A stretch of DNA of 32,000 nucleotides from Vibrio vulnificus CMCP6. Lineage in GTDB: Bacteria > Pseudomonadota > Gammaproteobacteria > Enterobacterales > Vibrionaceae. Location: assembly GCF_000039765.1 (NCBI RefSeq), contig NC_004459.3, positions 1,680,001-1,712,000 of the forward strand. The letters run 5' to 3'. Shown one piece after another: positions 3,603 to 26,397 of the stretch. The stretch's first letter is position 1; the number at the start of each line of letters is the position of its first letter. A program made the translations under genes and the position numbers. The notes below the pieces were generated by a model. That model searched no databases. It had not been told where the DNA came from and was given only the letters and a program-made list of their open reading frames with translations.

Positions 3603-4925
3603 TTGCAATTAACTACAGCCCTAACACTCGCCAATCGTTATGCCCCCAATACTGAACAACTTGGAAAACTCAGTGACATTCTTTGCCCTGATTTCATCAA
3701 CCAATGCTTAGAAGCTTCTGGTGTGGCCACTATTCGTAAACGTCGTATCCCTCTCGACATGGCCGTTTGGGCGGTCGTTGCTATGTCGCTTTACCGACAA
3801 GAGCCTTTGTGGTCAATTGTCTCCAAAGCGCAATTAATGTTGCCCGGGAAGCGAAGTCTGGTTGCCCCTAGTGCTATCGTTCAAGCGAGACAACGGCTCG
3901 GGGCTGATGCAATGAAAGAAGTATTTCATCAAAGCCAGAGCTTATGGAATGAAACAGCTGACCATCCGACTTGGTGTGGATTAAAACTCCTCGCTGTCGA
4001 TGGCGTGGTATGGCGAACGCCAGACACTAAGGAAAACCGTGATGCGTTTCAATCTGCGTCAAATCAGAATGGTGAAGGTAGCTTTCCTCAGGTGCGTATG
4101 GTTTGCCAGATGGAGTTGACCAGTCACATGCTGGTCGCCAGTGCTTTCGCGAGTTACAAAACCAATGAGATGATATTGGCGGAACAGTTGATTGAAACAA
4201 CACCAGACTACAGCCTCACAATGTTCGACAGAGGTTTTTACTCTCTTAGCCTTCTTCATCGTTGGGCAAATACAGGTAATGAAAGGCATTGGCTAATGCC
4301 AATGCGCAAGAATACCCAATTTACTGAAGTTAGAAAGCTGGGTCGCAATGATCGGATTGTCGAACTCAAGACAACGCCTCAAGCGAGAAAGAAGTCCCTG
4401 TCACTACCTGAAACCATCGAAGTTCGCCTGATAAAGAAAACTATCAAAGGGAAAGAAGTGAGTATCTTGACCTCGATGACTGATCATCGTCGTTATCCGC
4501 CAGCGGAAATAGCAGAGCTTTACAGTCATAGATGGGAAATCGAAGTGGGATATCGTGAAATGAAGTCTTCACTTCTGAACAACGAGTTCACACTGAGAAG
4601 CAAGAAGCCAGAGATGGTAAAACAAGAACTATGGGGCTTATTACTTAGCTATAACATTATTAGATATCAGATGGTTAACATGGCTAAAGCTGTGCCAGGC
4701 ATCTACCCCAACCAACTGAGCTTCACAACGTGTGCTCACTCTATCATTCACGTAATTTTGGGGTTCTGGTTGGAGTCAGCGGGAACAATCCCTAAGCGCA
4801 TTACTCACTTGCAAGAGGAGGCGATACACCATGTCTTGTCCATTAAACGAGAAGAGCGGATATATCCGAGAGCAATAAAACCAAAGGCAAAGAAATACCC
4901 CAATAAAAAAAGCCAGTCAGCTTAA
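3603..4925 (+). CDS. IS4-family DDE transposase (InsG-like), TTG start as tracked
   Basis: The translation aligns by eye along its whole length with my recollection of E. coli IS4 InsG. Shared stretches include [49 protein letters not shown] and [16 protein letters not shown], the last being the Y-2-R-3-E-6-K signature. Candidate DDE residues lie in LLAVDG, MFDRGF and RWEIE. Confidence 0.92.
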
Positions 4926-5388: not shown

Positions 5389-5620
5389 TATCTGCAAATC
5401 ACCATCACCTTCATCGCTTTTTTCTCTCTTTACCGTTTTTGTTTCTTCATTTTATATTGTTTCTTCTGACATTAGCGTTCCGCCAATTTCCTAACTGACT
5501 CGCAGAGCGGAAACCTCACAGTGCAAAACGCTCAGAATCTTATTGTTGATGTTTTACACACCAATATGTTGTGTGCAAAATTTCGGCAATTCTGTAATGC
5601 CGTCAATGAGATACAAGATC

Positions 5621-8600
5621 ATGTCAAAACCTGCAGCCACGATAGGTCATAATCATCTTTGTCCCAAAAAGACTGGGAAGATTCCTCACGTTGGAGGGCC
5701 GATCACGACAGGTTCAAGTAATGTCATGATCAACGGTGTGCCAGCAGCAAGAAAGGGAGATTCCATGGTTTGTGTGGGGCCTCCTGATAGCATAAAACAA
5801 GGCTCATCTTCCGTATTCATTAATGGTAAGCCAGCGGCTCGAATGTTTGACGCTACCAATCATGGCGGTGTCATTATTGGCGGTAGCCCTAATGTGTTTA
5901 TTGGTGATGCTGGGTGCTATCCTGACTCACAAGACTCTGCAGTTGCAAGTAGCGACTCTCGTCCGCAAAGCAATGAAGATAAACAAGTAGCGCCACCAAC
6001 AAAGCAAAGTAATTCTCTCTCAAACGAGCCTCAAGCTTCACCCTCATCTACGTCACATACGCCAGCGAATGGTTCCTCGACATCATCGGCTGTAGATAGC
6101 AATACCGTATATCCGGGTCTGTCGACAGATCAGAATCGTGAGCCGAAAACATTTTCCATTGTTCCTATTCGTTATGCGATTGATATGGAAAGGCAGACGC
6201 CTGAATCGGTACTAGGCCGCGGGCCTCTGTCAATATCGACACCCTACGTGCTACGTCAGTTGCGCGATGGATGGCTTTATATTTATGACGACCTCACTCA
6301 AGAGATAACGGAGTATAAAGTAGAAGGCGCATCACTTACTGGCGATGCAAACATCTATCTCGAAGGCACAACCCTGCATATCGCTTTCTCATTAATACAA
6401 TGGACAAAGCGTATTGTTGATACCCTCAAACAAGATTCGAGTTTAAGACATCGATGGATGCGTCGAGTGGTTTGTATTGAAGGAGAACAGTGGCATGTTG
6501 GTGATGAATTGACGCTCGAACATGTTTCGGATATGGATACGTGTCCACACGATTTTATAATGAGCTCGGTTTCATTACGAGAGCCGCCTAAAGTAGATTC
6601 AGGAGATGAGGTAGAGAGTAACCCGACAGCAGACGCTATTATGAGTCAGCTCGTAACCAGCAAACCCACTTTTTCCGCAGGTGAGTGGCTAGGAAATGCT
6701 CAGGGGGACGTAACATTAGTTGTGGCGTTGGATGATGTGCTTTCTGATGTACTTGATCTCACTATCCCATTAAATGTGCCAATTATTGAAAACCTTTCAA
6801 TAACGAAAGATGAAGACGAATTTCATAAGCTTGAGATGGCACGTATCGCGCGAAGTTTGGCGCGAGTGCAAGTGCCTGAATCGAAGTGGAGTTCAAACAT
6901 CAATAAATCAACCTATCCTTATTTTGAAGCTGATTTACATGCCTATTTTAAGGAGCGCGAGGCGGATGTTACTGAATTAGTCGCAAAGCAACAAAAACAA
7001 AGTTATGTGAGCCTGAATACTAAGGAGCACTCTACACACGGCTCCAAAGGGCTAAAAATATTACGAGAACGCTGGGACTATGTGCCAGATGAACTTGATC
7101 ATAAGCTCTGGTTTGAAAGACGAAAATACGTCGATGAAGTCAATTGGAAAAAACTGGATCGATTCAGTAACGAGATGGAATCCAAGTTGGGAGAGGCAGA
7201 GACGAAGATCGACCTCTATATGCGTGAGTTATACTCAGGCTTACAGGGGGCTGACGTCGTTGACCCTATGCGTTATGGCATAGATATCTACACACAAGAG
7301 GGTATGAATCACTACATTGTCCTCACCCATGAAATCTTTACCACCATGCAACTAGCGGTGCAAAACCGTGAACGAGAACTTAAAAAGTTAAATGAGTTTT
7401 TAGCGGGACGAAATATTCTCTCCTTTGCCCCCTATGGCGGCAGTGAATCCCTTAGCTTTGCGGTAACGCGAGAGCTGGATAATACCGAATCAATAAATCT
7501 AGTTCCCCACTATACCAATATCGTTGGGGCATTTGATAAATTAAAAGATCTGATGCAACACGGTACAGGACGCGATGCGATATGGGTGCGAGAACTAACC
7601 GAAGAAGCTCGTGCAGTACTCGATATATTGGGCAAAACTTTGAAAGGAGAGCTGAGTGACTATTTGAACCATTTGTTGCTCTATATCTATCCTGATCGTT
7701 TATCGAGTCCTCCCCTGCTGTTTGAAATAAAAAGGGCCATTTGGTGGTGTCGGATCAAACAGGAAGTACCGAGATTTAATGATGACTATATCAATGGAAC
7801 GCAACGATTTCGGAAAGAGTTTAAGCAGTTGGTTAAAGAACTCTCTGATGAATATTACAAACTCGACAAGCACACAATATGGCCGGTCCGAAAATACAAC
7901 CAGTATAAAAAACTGAGAACATCGTTACTTGAAAAATTGGTGGAACATCCGGACTTGATCTCTATTCGTGCCGACGAAAGTTTTCGCCAAAGTCGCAAGG
8001 CCTTACACGCGCGTTATATGCAGTTGGTTGGAGGAAAGTTTACACAAGCGAGCACTGCTTATAGCTCAGTTGGTGGTAACGCGGCATTAACGGTACTGCT
8101 CAATAGTATTAACTTAAATATGCTTAGTGGAACGCTAGGTGATACTGGAAAAGGCTCTGATGTACATAGCAAAGCACTTCAAGATGTTGGAATTGGACTG
8201 ATGTGGCTAATTTCCGCTTCTGGAGATCTCACAAAAAATCTTGTTGGGTCGTATTTGTCTAAGTCAATATCTGATATGAAGACAAAAACAGTCATGGAAA
8301 TTGCCTCTGCAAAAAGTATAAAGATTAGAGGGATAAGTGCCAATCGGATTTTTGTTTCTGCTCTTGTTACAGGGGCGATGTTTGGTGCTATAGCGTCGGC
8401 TTGGGAAATATACAAAAATAATCGTTTATTTCTACAATCAAACAATATATATGAGAAGGGGCTTTTACTACTTATTTCTTCTTCATATCTAGCTCAATTT
8501 GGTGTTTATATGGCAGTTTATATACGTGCTTCTATTTTAAACATAGCAGTTGGAAATTTACTTTTACCGTGGATGGTGACTGTCGGTGGATGGGTTGCAA

Positions 8601-9163
8601 TAAGCACTGTATTTATTCAAATTTTATATGAAATCAGCAAAAAAAATGAAATTGAAAAGTGGCTATCTGAATCTACGTGGGGAAAGAGTAATGCTAAATG
8701 GAGCAAGGAGAAAGAGCTATTAGAGTACAAAAAAATAGCGTTGAAACCAATAGTAGAAATCAAAGAACAAGCTAGCGTGTTCCCTTATGGGATGGAAAAA
8801 ACAACACCAAGTAGTGAAGGTTATTATCATGCGTCAACTACCAAAATGGCTGTTAATAGCCCGTTGTGTCGCTATGTATGCCGATTTTACGTTCCAGATC
8901 CAGAGCAAGGCATTGTTCTGACCATATTAAATAATGCGATTTTTATTCAAAAAAGTGGAAAATGGGAGCAGGAAGAAGGCCAATATTTCTATGAGATAGC
9001 GATGGAAAGTCGTACTGGTTTACGAGTAAATGTGACTTATGCTAGTGATGAAAGTGATATATGTTATCTAGTTTCAGGAAAAGGGGAAGGGCAATGTTCA
9101 GTTTCTTTCAATGATGGACGAGAAGTGAATGGTGATACATATCAAATTATAGGGCGTAAATAA
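5621..9163 (+). CDS. Orphan T6SS effector: PAAR domain, S/T/P/Q-rich linker, MIX-motif region and C-terminal multi-TM (VasX/Tme-like, presumed membrane-disrupting) module
   Basis: The start is chosen at ATG 5621 (MSKPAATIGH..., a typical PAAR N-terminus) rather than the tracked 5543. There are two literal PAAR motifs (5741-5752 and 5831-5842). The MIX motifs are SIVPIR (6155-6172), LRDGWLYIY (6260-6286) and IAFSLIQWT (6380-6406). About five long hydrophobic helices lie between ~8080 and 8640. The stop overlaps the start of the next gene (TAATG at 9161-9165). Confidence 0.85.
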   Translation: MSKPAATIGHNHLCPKKTGKIPHVGGPITTGSSNVMINGVPAARKGDSMVCVGPPDSIKQGSSSVFINGKPAARMFDATNHGGVIIGGSPNVFIGDAGCYPDSQDSAVASSDSRPQSNEDKQVAPPTKQSNSLSNEPQASPSSTSHTPANGSSTSSAVDSNTVYPGLSTDQNREPKTFSIVPIRYAIDMERQTPESVLGRGPLSISTPYVLRQLRDGWLYIYDDLTQEITEYKVEGASLTGDANIYLEGTTLHIAFSLIQWTKRIVDTLKQDSSLRHRWMRRVVCIEGEQWHVGDELTLEHVSDMDTCPHDFIMSSVSLREPPKVDSGDEVESNPTADAIMSQLVTSKPTFSAGEWLGNAQGDVTLVVALDDVLSDVLDLTIPLNVPIIENLSITKDEDEFHKLEMARIARSLARVQVPESKWSSNINKSTYPYFEADLHAYFKEREADVTELVAKQQKQSYVSLNTKEHSTHGSKGLKILRERWDYVPDELDHKLWFERRKYVDEVNWKKLDRFSNEMESKLGEAETKIDLYMRELYSGLQGADVVDPMRYGIDIYTQEGMNHYIVLTHEIFTTMQLAVQNRERELKKLNEFLAGRNILSFAPYGGSESLSFAVTRELDNTESINLVPHYTNIVGAFDKLKDLMQHGTGRDAIWVRELTEEARAVLDILGKTLKGELSDYLNHLLLYIYPDRLSSPPLLFEIKRAIWWCRIKQEVPRFNDDYINGTQRFRKEFKQLVKELSDEYYKLDKHTIWPVRKYNQYKKLRTSLLEKLVEHPDLISIRADESFRQSRKALHARYMQLVGGKFTQASTAYSSVGGNAALTVLLNSINLNMLSGTLGDTGKGSDVHSKALQDVGIGLMWLISASGDLTKNLVGSYLSKSISDMKTKTVMEIASAKSIKIRGISANRIFVSALVTGAMFGAIASAWEIYKNNRLFLQSNNIYEKGLLLLISSSYLAQFGVYMAVYIRASILNIAVGNLLLPWMVTVGGWVAISTVFIQILYEISKKNEIEKWLSESTWGKSNAKWSKEKELLEYKKIALKPIVEIKEQASVFPYGMEKTTPSSEGYYHASTTKMAVNSPLCRYVCRFYVPDPEQGIVLTILNNAIFIQKSGKWEQEEGQYFYEIAMESRTGLRVNVTYASDESDICYLVSGKGEGQCSVSFNDGREVNGDTYQIIGRK

Positions 9164-20038: not shown

Positions 20039-22078
20039 TCAGTTTTTATGGCGACGATTTTGTGCAAATAGTTCTTCTATCTCATGTTTAGGCTGGGGGC
20101 GATGGAAATGGAACCCCTGGATCGAGTGACAACGCAAATTCGACAGGAGTGCCGCTTGTTGATGAGTTTCTACCCCTTCGGCCACGACGGTGAGATTGAG
20201 AGATTTGCCGAGATTAATGATGTTTTCAATCACCGTGACCTGCTTCGGTAAAACGTCAATGTCATTGATAAACGCGCGGTCGATCTTCAGTTCATCAATC
20301 GGGAAGCGGGCTAAATACGCCAGTGAGGAATAACCGGTACCAAAGTCATCGATGGAGAGTGAGAAGCCCAGTTTCTTAATCGCGTTGAGCATCTGAATGG
20401 TGTGGTCACTGTCACTCATTACCGCACTTTCAGTCAGCTCGAAAGTGATGCAGTTAGGGTCTAACTCCGTGGTTCTCAGGAGTTTTTCCATAAAGTCGAT
20501 CAACTGAGGGTTGCCAAATTGCTCTGGCGATAAGTTAATCGCAACGCGACCAGGCAGAATTCCTTGGAGTTTCCAGCGTTTGACCGTGTTGAATACATCC
20601 CGCATGACCACACGACCTAAGTGCTCAATCAGGCCTGCTTTTTCAGCGACAGGAATGAAGGCCGCAGGGCTAATGTATCCTTCGACAGGGTGCTTCCAGC
20701 GTACTAACGCTTCGGCGCCATTAATGCTGAAGTCACGCGCATTAACTTTCGGCTGGTACCACACTTCAAGGCCATTTTGCTGTAGCGCTTTTTGCAGTTC
20801 GATCTCCAACCAAAGGCGCATACGCGCTTCTTTGTTCATCTGGTCATTAAACTTGATGAGACGGTTACGGCCGCGATCTTTGGCTTCGTACATCGCGGTA
20901 TCGGCATTTTGCAGCAGCACACGTGCATCTTGGCCATCTTCAGGATAACGAACACTGCCGATAGAACAGGCAAGGCGCTTGCTGAAATGGTGTAAATCAA
21001 ATGGCTGATTAATTAAGGAGATGATGCGCTCAGAGAGCAACTCGGCCATGCGGTTGTTTTCCGGCTCAGGCAAGATGACGCCAAACTCATCGCCCCCGAG
21101 ATGACCAATCACCGAGTGTTGTGGCAACAGTCGTTTCAGACGAGCTGCCACTTCAAGAATCACTTTGTCACCAATGTGGTGGCCCAGCGAGTCATTGATG
21201 TTTTTGAAGTTATCGATATCGAGATAAAACAACAACAAGGGGGTTTGGCTCTTAATCAACTGCTCCAGACGTTTGGTAAAACCGAAGCGGTTGTAGAGCT
21301 TCGTCAGGGAATCGATATGAATATCATCGCTGTTTTTCACCGAAAGATGTTTTGGCGTTTCATCAGCGTCTTGGATCAAGATGATTTGAGATTGGTTGCC
21401 CAGCACGGTGGTGAAATCTGCATGCAACTGAACGCGGCGCTCAAAGCCACAACGTGCACTGGTCATACAGACAAACGCTTTTTCGGAAAGCAGTGAGCAG
21501 AGTTTATGGCTAAACACCATCTTGCTCTTCTCATCCATAAATAATCGACTGAGCTCTTCGCCAAGCAAGTCATGCTGCGAATTGAAACCAAGCAGCCTAG
21601 CCGCAGCGGGGTTTGCTGAGAGAATGGTGTCTTCTTCCACCAGCAGTAAACCATCGGGCAGTAGTTGCGTTAAACGAGAAAACTTGGTTTCTGACTCTTC
21701 TAGGGATTTGACGAGAATGTGTTTTTCAGAGGTATCAATCGCTTGAAAAAGAAGGTGAGAAATCTGTTCACCATCTTCCACAGGGGACAAACTAAAATGC
21801 AAACTGGTTTCAAGATCGGTTTCATCGAGGGTGATTTCGGCCTCAATACTTTCACCGAGCAGAGCTCGGTCGTAGTAAGGCTTTAGCTTTTGGTAAAAGT
21901 TGTCACCTAAAATTTGTGCATCATTCATCCCTATTAGCTCTTCCTGAGCTAACCCCGCAACGTCGCAATAACGTTCATTCACCAAGCAATAGTTATGTTG
22001 CTTATCAAGAATAGCGAAGAAAAAAGGGCTATTAGAAGTCAGTTTATTAAACCAATGGTGCATTTGCTTGGAAGGCAT
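20039..22078 (-). CDS. Cytoplasmic PAS-PAS-GGDEF-EAL c-di-GMP turnover protein
   Basis: ATG 22078 is preferred to the adjacent tracked TTG at 22081. Motifs present: LGGDEFGVIL, EALVRW, DDFGTGYSS, EGVET and QGFHF. Two PAS-like regions lie in the N-terminal 240 aa. No RxxD I-site is present. Confidence 0.9.
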   Translation of the reverse strand: MPSKQMHHWFNKLTSNSPFFFAILDKQHNYCLVNERYCDVAGLAQEELIGMNDAQILGDNFYQKLKPYYDRALLGESIEAEITLDETDLETSLHFSLSPVEDGEQISHLLFQAIDTSEKHILVKSLEESETKFSRLTQLLPDGLLLVEEDTILSANPAAARLLGFNSQHDLLGEELSRLFMDEKSKMVFSHKLCSLLSEKAFVCMTSARCGFERRVQLHADFTTVLGNQSQIILIQDADETPKHLSVKNSDDIHIDSLTKLYNRFGFTKRLEQLIKSQTPLLLFYLDIDNFKNINDSLGHHIGDKVILEVAARLKRLLPQHSVIGHLGGDEFGVILPEPENNRMAELLSERIISLINQPFDLHHFSKRLACSIGSVRYPEDGQDARVLLQNADTAMYEAKDRGRNRLIKFNDQMNKEARMRLWLEIELQKALQQNGLEVWYQPKVNARDFSINGAEALVRWKHPVEGYISPAAFIPVAEKAGLIEHLGRVVMRDVFNTVKRWKLQGILPGRVAINLSPEQFGNPQLIDFMEKLLRTTELDPNCITFELTESAVMSDSDHTIQMLNAIKKLGFSLSIDDFGTGYSSLAYLARFPIDELKIDRAFINDIDVLPKQVTVIENIINLGKSLNLTVVAEGVETHQQAALLSNLRCHSIQGFHFHRPQPKHEIEELFAQNRRHKN

Positions 22079-22345
22079 CAAAGTACTACCCGTCTCCAGA
22101 GAGCGTAATTAATCGTCCATGTCATGAAATCGCTGAAACGCAATCACTATAACTGTGATAATAGCGTTATTAAAGGCTTTATCAGTACAAGTGTGACAAT
22201 ATTTCATTCAAGGTCAAAAAAACGTCGCTGATTGTTATTATTTTAAACAACGCGATATGAAATCGTTTTTTGACGCACAACAGTAATTCATCACATGCTA
22301 TCAACTAAGATAGTCGCATTTATGACAAAGTAACGGAAAATAAGC

Positions 22346-23909: not shown

Positions 23910-24362
23910 ATGAGTTGTATGATCGTTCCTATGTCTCAGGAGCACCTTGAGGCTGTTTACCATATTGAAGGTCGTGCACATTCGCACCCTTGGGCAGAGA
24001 GCTTGGTGAAGGATCTCTCCAGTCGCGGTGCGATGCATCGTGTATTGCTGGTGGATGGCGAAGTAGTCGGCTATTTCTATGCACAAAACATCGTTGGCGA
24101 GCTCACCTTACTTAACATCGCAGTGTGCCCCAAACAACAAGGCAAAGGCTATGGCCGCCAGTTGTTAGACGCATTTATTGATGAAGGTGAAGCGGCAAAC
24201 GCGGAAAGTGCGTGGTTAGAAGTGCGTGAGAGCAATGTGAACGCCATTCATCTCTATCAAGAGATGGGTTTTAACGAAGTGGATCGTCGCCGCAATTACT
24301 ATCCTACTCAGTCAGGGAAGGAAGACGCGATCATTATGAGTTACTTATTTGGTTGCTTTTAA
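23910..24362 (+). CDS. rimI: Ribosomal-protein-S18-alanine N-acetyltransferase
   Basis: 150 aa. YHIEGRAHSHPW, LLNIAVCPKQQGKGYGRQLL and RRNYYPTQSGKEDAIIM match RimI. Confidence 0.88.
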   Translation: MSCMIVPMSQEHLEAVYHIEGRAHSHPWAESLVKDLSSRGAMHRVLLVDGEVVGYFYAQNIVGELTLLNIAVCPKQQGKGYGRQLLDAFIDEGEAANAESAWLEVRESNVNAIHLYQEMGFNEVDRRRNYYPTQSGKEDAIIMSYLFGCF

Positions 24363-26397
24363 CTTTGCTTGAATGACTCTCTTGGTGCTGACGGCTTTCA
24401 CGTAATTTCTGCGTGATCATCTCCACAGGGAGCGGCTTGCCAAAGAGATACCCCTGAAATTGTTCACAACCGAGTTCGACCAATGTGTTGAACTCTTCTT
24501 CTGTTTCTACCCCTTCGGCAATGACTTCTAAACTTAAGCGCTCAGCAATCATAATGATCGTTGAAACAATGGCTTGGTCGCTTTGATCAAGATGCAACTG
24601 AGTGACAAAGGAGCGGTCAATTTTCAGTACGTCCACCGCTAGATGTTTGAGATAGCGGAGTGAGGAATAACCGGTGCCAAAGTCATCGATCGAGATTTTG
24701 AGATCCAGTTCTTTTAGCTCTGCCATTTTATTGATCGCGCTTTCGACGTTTTCCAATAGCAAGCTCTCAGTGATCTCCAATTCAATATGCTCACCCGTGA
24801 TATTGGCTTGTTTTAATGCATGAGTGATGTGTTCGACAAAGGCATTTTTAGAGAACTGCAATGGGCTAATGTTGATGGCAAGTCGATGGAACGTTTCAGG
24901 CAAAACTTGTTCTTTTTTCCACTGAGCGTATTGAAAACACGCTTGCTCAATAATCCAATCACCAATTTGCAGAATTTGCCCCGTTTCCTCTGCTATGGGC
25001 ATAAAGACTCCGGGAGGAAGCACGCCTTTTTCTGGATGGTTCCAACGGATGAGGGCTTCCACTCCGATAATTTGTTGCTGTGCGTTGACCTGAGGTTGGT
25101 AGTAAAGCTCAAGTTGCCCTTTGTGCAGTGCTTCATGCAGCCCTTTCTCTATCTCCAAAAAAGACTCCACTTGCGCCTGCATTTCTGGTTCATAAAACAT
25201 GTATTTATTGCGTCCGGCGACTTTGGCGCGATAGAGCGCCGTATCGGCCTGACGGAGCACATCAATGCTCGAGATGCCTTTGTCTGCAAACGTGGAAATA
25301 CCAATACTGACCGTGCAATACAGTTGGTGATCGTCAATGGAATAAGGGTTTGAGATCAAGGTGAGCAACTGCTTCGCTTTGTTGGCGGCATCTTCTTTAT
25401 TGAGTTTCGGGATCAAAATGGCGAACTCATCCCCACCAATGCGTGCGGCAATTTCTCCGGGTTGTAGCCATGCTTCTAGGCGTTTCGCAATGGTGCGCAT
25501 TAAGTTGTCACCAATGGTATGCCCTAGGGAGTCGTTAATGGTTTTGAAACGGTCGAGGTCGAGATAAAACAGTACTCCTGGGTATTGCTCGCTTTGTGAC
25601 TCTTTAAGGGTTTCATTGAGGCTTTTTAGCAGCAAGCTGCGGTTGGCTAAGCCTGTTAGGGTATCGAAGTAAGCCAATTGGTTGAGCTGACTTTCTGCTG
25701 CCGCGCGCGCTTGCCAGAGATTGTGAAATGAAAGCGCGAGTCGACCCAGTTCATCATTGTTGTTACCGGGAGGCAGTTCCAAGGCATTTTTTCGATTTTG
25801 CAGCGAATTCACCCAATTAATCAGCGTGATAATGGGCTTTGATAGCTTAAAGTAAAAGAAAAACAACAAGATAGAGGTGAGTAATATATTGCGAAACAGA
25901 TCGAACAAGACAATTCGAGTTGATTTCTTAATAAAGGCATCGGCGATGCTAGAGCCATCAACCGAGAAACTCAATTCACCAACAATTGCATTGGCGTTGG
26001 GTTGATGCAGTTCTGTTTTGTAAAACGGTTGAGCGGGGGTCAGTATTTTAGACAACAGCTGAGTCGTTAGGCTCTGAGAATCAATTTCACGGTGCTTTTG
26101 GGTCAGCACGTCTCCAAAATCGTCGACGATTTTTACTCGGTAGATGGCATTGTCCATCATTAGGGTCGAGGCAACCTGCTCGGCGAGCAGATGATTCAGA
26201 TGATATGCGGCTTGGCTGGCATTGGAATAGTTTTGCAGCAGCTTAAACTGGTAGTGCTCTTCAATACGGCGTTGCTCTTGGTGCAGATCAGCCAAAATGT
26301 GGTACAAGCTGAAACACAGTCCCAATACAACGGAAACCAGAAAAACGGTTCTGGCTTGCTTGAAAGCTAATGAATGCACTTTTTTGTTTCTAAGCAT
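24334..26397 (-). CDS. Membrane-bound sensor GGDEF-EAL protein (2 TM, periplasmic loop, HAMP-like linker)
   Basis: 687 aa. The TM segments are TVFLVSVVLGLCFSLYHIL and ILLTSILLFFFYFKL. Motifs present: RIGGDEFAILIP, EALIRW, DDFGTGYSS, EGVETEEE and QGYLFGKP. The 3' end overlaps the rimI 3' end by 29 nt, convergently. Confidence 0.9.
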   Translation of the reverse strand: MLRNKKVHSLAFKQARTVFLVSVVLGLCFSLYHILADLHQEQRRIEEHYQFKLLQNYSNASQAAYHLNHLLAEQVASTLMMDNAIYRVKIVDDFGDVLTQKHREIDSQSLTTQLLSKILTPAQPFYKTELHQPNANAIVGELSFSVDGSSIADAFIKKSTRIVLFDLFRNILLTSILLFFFYFKLSKPIITLINWVNSLQNRKNALELPPGNNNDELGRLALSFHNLWQARAAAESQLNQLAYFDTLTGLANRSLLLKSLNETLKESQSEQYPGVLFYLDLDRFKTINDSLGHTIGDNLMRTIAKRLEAWLQPGEIAARIGGDEFAILIPKLNKEDAANKAKQLLTLISNPYSIDDHQLYCTVSIGISTFADKGISSIDVLRQADTALYRAKVAGRNKYMFYEPEMQAQVESFLEIEKGLHEALHKGQLELYYQPQVNAQQQIIGVEALIRWNHPEKGVLPPGVFMPIAEETGQILQIGDWIIEQACFQYAQWKKEQVLPETFHRLAINISPLQFSKNAFVEHITHALKQANITGEHIELEITESLLLENVESAINKMAELKELDLKISIDDFGTGYSSLRYLKHLAVDVLKIDRSFVTQLHLDQSDQAIVSTIIMIAERLSLEVIAEGVETEEEFNTLVELGCEQFQGYLFGKPLPVEMITQKLRESRQHQESHSSKVKSNQISNS

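Follow-up and report, generated by a model that had tools for sequence, protein, structure and literature searches.

A PAAR-fused relative of VasX and an array of TsiV2-like genes form a putative type VI secretion effector–immunity island between rpsO and pnp of Vibrio vulnificus

The stretch of DNA analysed here, called the window, comprises 32,000 nucleotides (nt) of chromosome I of Vibrio vulnificus CMCP6 (NC_004459.3, positions 1,680,001 to 1,712,000), and it holds a toxin–immunity island located between rpsO and pnp. The gene order in this part of the window is infB, rbfA and truB, an IS4-family transposase gene, the S15 leader with rpsO, the effector gene that is the subject of this report, four paralogous genes encoding proteins of 246–254 amino acids (aa), a truncated fifth copy, pnp, and a gene for a tetratricopeptide (TPR)-repeat lipoprotein, which we presume to be nlpI from its position beside pnp. 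The immediate neighbours of the effector gene are rpsO upstream and the four paralogous membrane-protein genes downstream, which bears out a remark of the original prediction (made by a model from the sequence, without database searches) that no adaptor gene lies beside it. As judged by comparison with an empty site in another strain, positions 5391–5620 (+) hold the left end of the island and the (promoter) region upstream of the effector gene, where two weak sigma-70-like sites occur.

The open reading frame (ORF) at 5621–9163 (+) translates without interruption into an effector of 1180 aa with the layout PAAR, linker, MIX, helical scaffold, hydrophobic region and beta-rich C-terminal domain. 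Among public V. vulnificus proteins there is one with 100% identity to this product, and dozens of alleles are on record at 89–99% identity. The ATG at 5621 was preferred as start over an upstream TTG at 5543 because public V. vulnificus records share this ATG and because alignments with solved PAAR proteins begin at residue 3–5 of the effector. All motifs named in the original prediction, as well as the reading frame itself, were found where it had placed them within 5621–9163, and its PAAR and MIX assignments were upheld by profile searches, in which Pfam PAAR_motif (PF05488) scored 83.9 bits (E 9e-24, aa 18–86) and Pfam VasX_N (PF20249) scored 58.2 bits (E 1.3e-15, aa 178–284), each above its gathering score of 27. 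The PAAR domain (aa 1–97, 5621–5911, +) carries two PAAR motifs at aa 41–44 and aa 71–74, and aligns residue for residue with the solved structures 8GRA (2.2e-20) and 9RCE (5.7e-20). The His/Cys positions agree with those of the solved PAAR proteins (8GRA_J and 9RCE_c) in the blocks HxC-P, PH-GGPI and vC-GPP. The NCBIfam equivalog for stand-alone type VI secretion system (T6SS) PAAR proteins gave a score of 56.6, under its cutoff of 124, as expected of a fused domain. A low-complexity linker rich in Ser, Thr, Pro, Gln and Asn follows (aa 98–175, 5912–6145, +); measured over aa 98–178 (81 aa), these five residues make up 58% of the composition, and in the AlphaFold2 (AF2) model the linker has a predicted local distance difference test score (pLDDT) below 30 and is without predicted secondary structure.

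The MIX domain (aa 176 to ∼300, 6146–6520, +) contains SIVPIR (aa 179–184, nt 6155–6172), LRDGWLYIY (aa 214–222, nt 6260–6286) and IAFSLIQWT (aa 254–262, nt 6380–6406), near the N-terminus and in the order of the consensus. This consensus, as quoted in the original prediction, reportedly reads shhPhR, hRxGhhYhh and hhF/YSxxxWS/T and is said to stem from work by Salomon and colleagues in 2014. The alpha-helical scaffold (aa ∼301–860, 6521–8200, +), delimited by alignment to VasX and by predicted helical structure, contains the conserved motif VVALDDVLSDVLDL (aa 367–380, nt 6719–6760). The suggested resemblance of this post-MIX segment to a motif of VasX-like toxins holds well, as no variation is seen among 32 family members in columns V368, L370, D372, D379 and L380 of the VVALDD...DL motif. 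The scaffold is followed by a hypervariable hydrophobic region (aa 861–1006, 8201–8638, +), a putative membrane-inserting domain by virtue of its hydropathy, AF2 helices and allelic diversity. About five hydrophobic helices had been proposed for 8080–8640, and five long AF2 helices (aa 820–841, 847–882, 907–939, 943–971 and 977–1006) do span nt 8078–8638; only three of them, all within aa 907–1006, are strongly hydrophobic. Kyte–Doolittle values above 1.6 are reached only in the last three helices (aa 910–928, 948–966 and 970–1002), the helix segment at aa 821–839 peaks at 1.22, and no segment of the 847–882 helix attains 1.2. The protein ends in a beta-rich C-terminal domain (aa 1044–1180, 8750–9160, +), assigned from predicted strands and from alignment to the VasX C-terminus, and AF2 predicts ten to eleven strands in the last ∼140 aa.

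The family relationship is carried by colinear homology to V. cholerae VasX, with BLASTP matches at 1e-33 (aa 180–743) and 7e-13 (aa 907–1169). The helical scaffold aligns to aa 152–639 of VasX and the C-terminal domain, in the second of these matches, to the VasX C-terminus, so that the two proteins share a colinear scaffold, hydrophobic region and C-terminal domain as well as the same three MIX motifs and the VALxDxLxDxxDL motif, although at an identity of just ∼23–24%. A profile built from 32 relatives matches the MIX region of Ptx2 from Pseudomonas aeruginosa (9QPV) at 9.7e-17 and that of Tke5 from P. putida (9R8G) at 2.1e-8. With Ptx2, the family profile search also yielded a second, weaker colinear stretch across the hydrophobic region; outside MIX the similarity to Tke5 and Ptx2 is weak. 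Beyond the PAAR region, these two proteins are the sole significant neighbours of solved structure. The predicted order of secondary structure in the effector (beta MIX, long helical region, hydrophobic helices, beta-rich C-terminus) matches the domain plan of Tke5, in which MIX is followed by a helical scaffold that encloses a hydrophobic domain and by an immunoglobulin (Ig)-like beta C-terminal domain (PMC12909789), and Ptx2 has the same domain order with an Ig-like sandwich at its C-terminus (bioRxiv 10.1101/2025.04.30.651342). Because of this match in domain order, the C-terminal region, which had been put down as one of unknown function, is taken as the counterpart of the Ig-like C-terminal domain of the family, a domain that in Tke5 binds model membranes (PMC12909789). 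VasX, Tke5 and Ptx2 all depolarise membranes (PMC13133200, PMC12909789, bioRxiv 10.1101/2025.04.30.651342). Tke5 and Ptx2 are cargo effectors loaded through the MIX-binding adaptors Tap3 or Tap6, whereas the present effector has a fused PAAR domain and no adjacent adaptor. With regard to MIX clan, Tke5 is reported as clan II (PMC13133200) and the V. vulnificus orthologue as clan IV (PMC13348674).

Downstream of the effector gene lie four immunity genes in tandem. Copy 1 (9163–9903, +; 246 aa), whose start overlaps the effector stop codon, matches V. cholerae TsiV2 in BLASTP at 4e-14 with 30% identity, and copies 2 (9953–10705, +; 250 aa; 71% identical to copy 1), 3 (10732–11496, +; 254 aa) and 4 (11546–12301, +; 251 aa) follow, each of the four proteins having three predicted hydrophobic segments. 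The protein identical to copy 1 is recorded 139 times in V. vulnificus, and its exact sequence bears the CMCP6-series accession AAO10119.2. Local Pfam and NCBIfam scans gave no match for any of the four proteins; their identity therefore rests on the BLASTP match to TsiV2 and on the newer Pfam family PF27447 (TsiV2), which is precomputed on the equivalent immunity genes of other strains. What the original prediction had called array copies are thus homologs of TsiV2-type immunity proteins, and the arrangement resembles that of V. cholerae, where the homologous membrane immunity protein is likewise encoded directly downstream, with the difference that V. cholerae has one such gene and the present locus four and a remnant. 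At the nucleotide level the four copies are mosaics of one another: copy 3 has a 5′ half equal to copy 4, a 3′ half equal to copy 1 and an expanded Ala-Gly repeat (AGAGAGAGAGAG), and no difference among the four is seen over a central stretch of 71 nt or more. These sequence patterns point to recombination or gene conversion as having shaped the array. The truncated fifth gene (12329–12481, +), a 50-codon ORF recognised by reading the sequence and by comparison with strain locus L081, is of another allele type; over its first ∼90 nt it shares ∼96% identity with the 5′ end of L081's first immunity gene, which suggests that the remnant is a trace of past cassette replacement.

Comparison of V. 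vulnificus assemblies through an rpsO look-up revealed that the same rpsO–pnp site is empty in some strains, and in others holds the island with two to five immunity copies, a split effector or immunity genes only. At the empty site (L091) pnp directly follows rpsO, and the near-identity of our sequence to it stops at 5390, just past the rpsO terminator hairpin. The immunity-only locus (L092) has five immunity genes and, of the effector, a PAAR stub of 79 aa, and in L087 the effector is split into ORFs of 764 and 407 aa. Such behaviour of a site is typical of an effector–immunity island. The pnp leader of island-bearing strains (∼12590–12805) is clearly diverged from that of the empty site (9327–9588 in L091), and the island may have moved along with its flanking leader sequence through homologous recombination. 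An exact-peptide scan of genome contigs found no relative, and the 80 loci kept from a second contig scan include none from V. vulnificus, which suggests that the V. vulnificus representative genome lacks the effector gene.

Among 48 full-length effector alleles, diversity peaks in aa 861–1000 (nt 8201–8620), that is, in the hydrophobic region. Against the L081 allele, this segment has a nonsynonymous divergence (dN) of 0.47 and a synonymous divergence (dS) of 1.19, whereas dS in the rest of the gene is 0.05–0.31. Positive selection was considered as the cause of the hypervariable region and set aside, as dS is raised there too; because dS is so strongly raised, recombinational exchange of old allelic cassettes fits better, and aa 861–1000 looks, from its sequence, like an old, exchanged cassette rather than something that recent positive selection alone produced. 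Covariation with the effector allele is seen in the first immunity gene, which is 54% identical between CMCP6 and L081, and the sequence variation suggests that toxin–immunity specificity resides in the membrane-inserting region. Overall, the locus shows what is usual for polymorphic toxins, namely that cassettes are exchanged and immunity genes accumulate. By contrast with the hypervariable region, strong purifying selection acts on PAAR and MIX: dN/dS is 0.05 for PAAR against the L081, L084 and L089 alleles, 0.06–0.15 for MIX over four allele comparisons, and ∼0.05–0.07 for PAAR and MIX in the three informative comparisons, with MIX diversity near zero.

The relation between PAAR fusion and adaptor genes was followed in a census of 80 related loci, whose neighbouring genes were classified by iterative searches seeded with VasW, VgrG2, TsiV2 and the PAAR domain of the effector; the denominators are 74 unfused relatives with enough upstream sequence and four PAAR-fused ones. 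A DUF4123 gene is adjacent in 52 of the 74 unfused relatives, nearly always in the order VgrG, adaptor, effector, immunity, and three of the adaptor matches were confirmed as DUF4123 by Pfam. None of the four fused relatives (from Photobacterium sanctipauli, V. variabilis and, twice, V. maritimus) has an adjacent DUF4123 gene, and none has a VgrG gene nearby; L001, the intact one of the four, is set among unrelated metabolic genes. The proposal that the PAAR fusion stands in for an adjacent adaptor fits this census, in which each fused form has its nearest relatives among the other fused forms, all of them in one clade. The same contrast is seen against the VgrG2–VasW–VasX–TsiV2 module of V. 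cholerae, as the V. vulnificus effector adds an N-terminal PAAR domain and an ∼80-aa linker to the VasX plan, is without an upstream VgrG or DUF4123 (VasW) gene, and is placed in the housekeeping operon rpsO–pnp rather than in an auxiliary T6SS cluster. In draft assemblies, the fused orthologues of V. variabilis and V. maritimus (L002, L003 and L004) are broken into several ORFs, representing either pseudogenes or sequencing frameshifts. When six of the adaptor-less unfused relatives were scanned with Pfam, three were found to carry LysM N-terminal extensions. These VasX-like proteins of up to 1421 aa, each without an adjacent DUF4123 gene, come from Moritella (L018), Photobacterium galatheae (L029) and V. 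proteolyticus (L052), and the effector of L056, at 1431 aa, is similar in length to the LysM-extended relatives. From species and architecture, L052 appears to be the MIX IV–LysM–MIX V effector of V. proteolyticus that is reported to be secreted by T6SS1 (PMC5666596).

Taken together, the locus is very probably an orphan T6SS effector–immunity island, and its effector a PAAR-fused (specialised) membrane-depolarising toxin of the VasX/BTH_I2691 family. In such a scheme, the effector would be covalently seated, by its PAAR cone, at the tip of a VgrG trimer whose gene lies elsewhere, and an adjacent DUF4123 protein would then not be needed; on contraction of the sheath the toxin would reach the periplasm of a Gram-negative neighbour, as for other members of the family. 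By analogy with VasX, Tke5 and Ptx2, the hydrophobic helices at aa ∼907–1006 would be held by the scaffold while the protein is soluble and, once released, would insert in the inner membrane and form an ion-conducting channel, leading to collapse of the membrane potential; the beta-rich C-terminal domain probably helps membrane binding, as in Tke5. The four TsiV2-like inner-membrane proteins encoded downstream would protect the producer and its kin. The hypervariable region and the diverged, mosaic immunity copies suggest allele-specific recognition between toxin and immunity protein, and the array could then cover several of the alleles circulating in V. vulnificus.

Several points weigh against this interpretation. 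What we observe directly is the domain content, the homology of effector and immunity proteins to known families, the genomic setting and the population variation; secretion of the effector, its toxicity, its target compartment and the function of the immunity proteins are all things that we infer, and no experiment or functional study on this V. vulnificus effector was found in the literature searched. The 32-kb window contains no T6SS structural gene, including no VgrG gene. The NCBIfam BTH_I2691 model NF041559 matches aa 250–1039 with E 1.7e-26 but at 93.1 bits misses its cutoff of 150, and because of this shortfall the effector counts as a divergent VasX/BTH_I2691 relative rather than a core member by that model. 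The structure models are of low confidence (pLDDT of 49.5 for the full-length AF2 model and 64.9 for that of aa 801–1180). In a Foldseek search with the full-length model, Ptx2 was the only significant match (E 4.7e-7), with TM-scores of just 0.23–0.27, and the search of the PDB with the aa 801–1180 model returned nothing significant (best E 0.067); because of the latter result the C-terminal fold is described here only as ‘beta-rich’. This null is plausibly explained by a tendency of AlphaFold to draw the hydrophobic helices extended, unlike their cryo-electron microscopy (cryo-EM) conformation, as the authors of the Ptx2 structure report for AlphaFold3 (bioRxiv 10.1101/2025.04.30.651342). 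With regard to the census, 22 of the 74 unfused relatives also are without an adjacent adaptor, and because all fused forms fall into one clade, the contrast between fused and unfused loci amounts effectively to one evolutionary event.

The conservation of MIX in a protein that carries its own PAAR domain invites two further readings. The MIX domain may still bind a DUF4123 (Tap) chaperone encoded elsewhere, which would stabilise the hydrophobic toxin before loading and leave PAAR as an attachment point only. This is unlikely though credible, as MIX is the adaptor-binding surface in Tke5 and Ptx2 (PMC12909789; bioRxiv 10.1101/2025.04.30.651342) and is here kept intact under strong purifying selection with near-zero diversity, whereas an adjacent adaptor gene is found at none of five PAAR-fused loci, a count that covers neighbourhoods only. 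The intactness of MIX and its dN/dS of 0.06–0.15, despite a covalent PAAR domain and no adaptor gene at the five fused loci, are also the grounds on which a second role is proposed, and it is possible, if somewhat doubtful, that MIX in the PAAR-fused clade has a job other than the recruitment of an adjacent Tap adaptor, such as shielding of the hydrophobic region or direct contact with VgrG or the baseplate. If this is true, and if the genome encodes no DUF4123 protein elsewhere, the lineage would be a natural experiment that splits adaptor binding by MIX from its second role.

Two other readings concern the target and the nature of the toxin. That its main role is against eukaryotic cells, be they host or grazers, rather than bacteria would accord with the enrichment of the orthologue group in clinical isolates (PMC13348674) and with the first identification of VasX as a protein required to kill Dictyostelium (PMC6267618, PMC13133200). 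This reading is improbable, since four intact downstream immunity genes, the immunity-only array of L092 and the allele-matched variation speak for within-species interbacterial conflict, and the survey of MIX effectors in Vibrionaceae classes effectors as antibacterial by the presence of a downstream immunity gene (PMC6267618). The original prediction had placed the effector in the VasX or Tme mould, and the first half of that statement stands on full-length homology. The Tme family is defined by another C-terminal motif, a DxxK sequence in the Tme domain with a transmembrane helix behind it (Fridman et al. 2020, PMC7046647), and is called distinct from VasX by its describers (PMC7046647). 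It is highly improbable that the C-terminal part is a Tme-family or colicin Ia-like pore domain joined to MIX, even though Tme domains may be fused to PAAR or MIX (PMC7046647) and older reviews, as far as they are cited in PMC13348674, likened BTH_I2691 to colicin Ia. The VasX homology takes in the hydrophobic region as well as the C-terminal domain, unique folds are reported by the Ptx2 authors (bioRxiv 10.1101/2025.04.30.651342), and neither the Pfam scan (E up to 0.1) nor the two fold searches, the latter made with low-confidence models, brought up a colicin. Both the colicin and the Tme readings were rejected in favour of a VasX-type toxin.

The interpretation is supported, and both the architecture and its reading are already described for this orthologue in an mBio paper of 2026 (PMC13348674). 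That study lists the V. vulnificus groups OG0003626/OG0000002 (VV1_1702/VV1_1704) with an N-terminal PAAR domain, MIX_IV and a BTH_I2691 C-terminal part, names serial VV1_1704 copies beside VV1_1702 as putative immunity genes, and finds the effector enriched in clinical isolates; species, architecture and serial immunity copies agree with the present locus, which appears to represent the same gene family. The hypervariable hydrophobic region, the insertion site with its empty and immunity-only variants, and the adaptor census are not part of that paper, and these, together with the finding that MIX is under purifying selection even though PAAR is fused, are the small additions made here. A PAAR–MIX fusion had been seen in 2017 in V. 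proteolyticus (vpr01s_06_01360, PMC5666596), similar in having an N-terminal PAAR domain on a MIX effector and different in that it is another protein with a clan II MIX. Fusions of BTH_I2691 proteins with PAAR, LysM, VgrG and DUF4123 are catalogued in the 2026 Communications Biology paper on Tke5 (PMC13133200; CDART listing), and no functional study of PAAR–MIX or PAAR–BTH_I2691 fusions was found in the literature searched. The practical value of the locus is modest; it offers a well-bounded VasX-type toxin with its own PAAR domain and no new kind of system. The natural variation in alleles and immunity copies, along with the empty sites and the immunity-only strains, makes up a panel in which allele-specific immunity and the site of recognition can be studied, and the same panel is suited to asking whether a PAAR-fused effector still requires its MIX domain. 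In view of the clinical enrichment (PMC13348674), a functional test would tell interbacterial competition from host damage as its cause.

With respect to regulation, a consensus search did not confirm a published SmcR site upstream of the effector gene, where the best match is 16/22 at 5543; 51 sites in the window have this score and five more score higher, giving 56 sites at 16/22 or above. Further downstream, two GGDEF–EAL proteins, one of them with PAS domains, are encoded at 20039–22081 (−) and 24334–26397 (−), and a diguanylate cyclase (VV1_1733) is placed with the effector among the clinically enriched genes in the mBio paper (PMC13348674). On the other side of the island, truB and the S15 leader with rpsO are separated by the IS4-family transposase gene (3603–4925, +; NCBIfam transpos_IS4_1, 300 bits), which the 12 other V. 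vulnificus loci compared (L081–L092) do not have there, and downstream of it the S15 leader (Rfam RF00114, 5002–5121) is intact.

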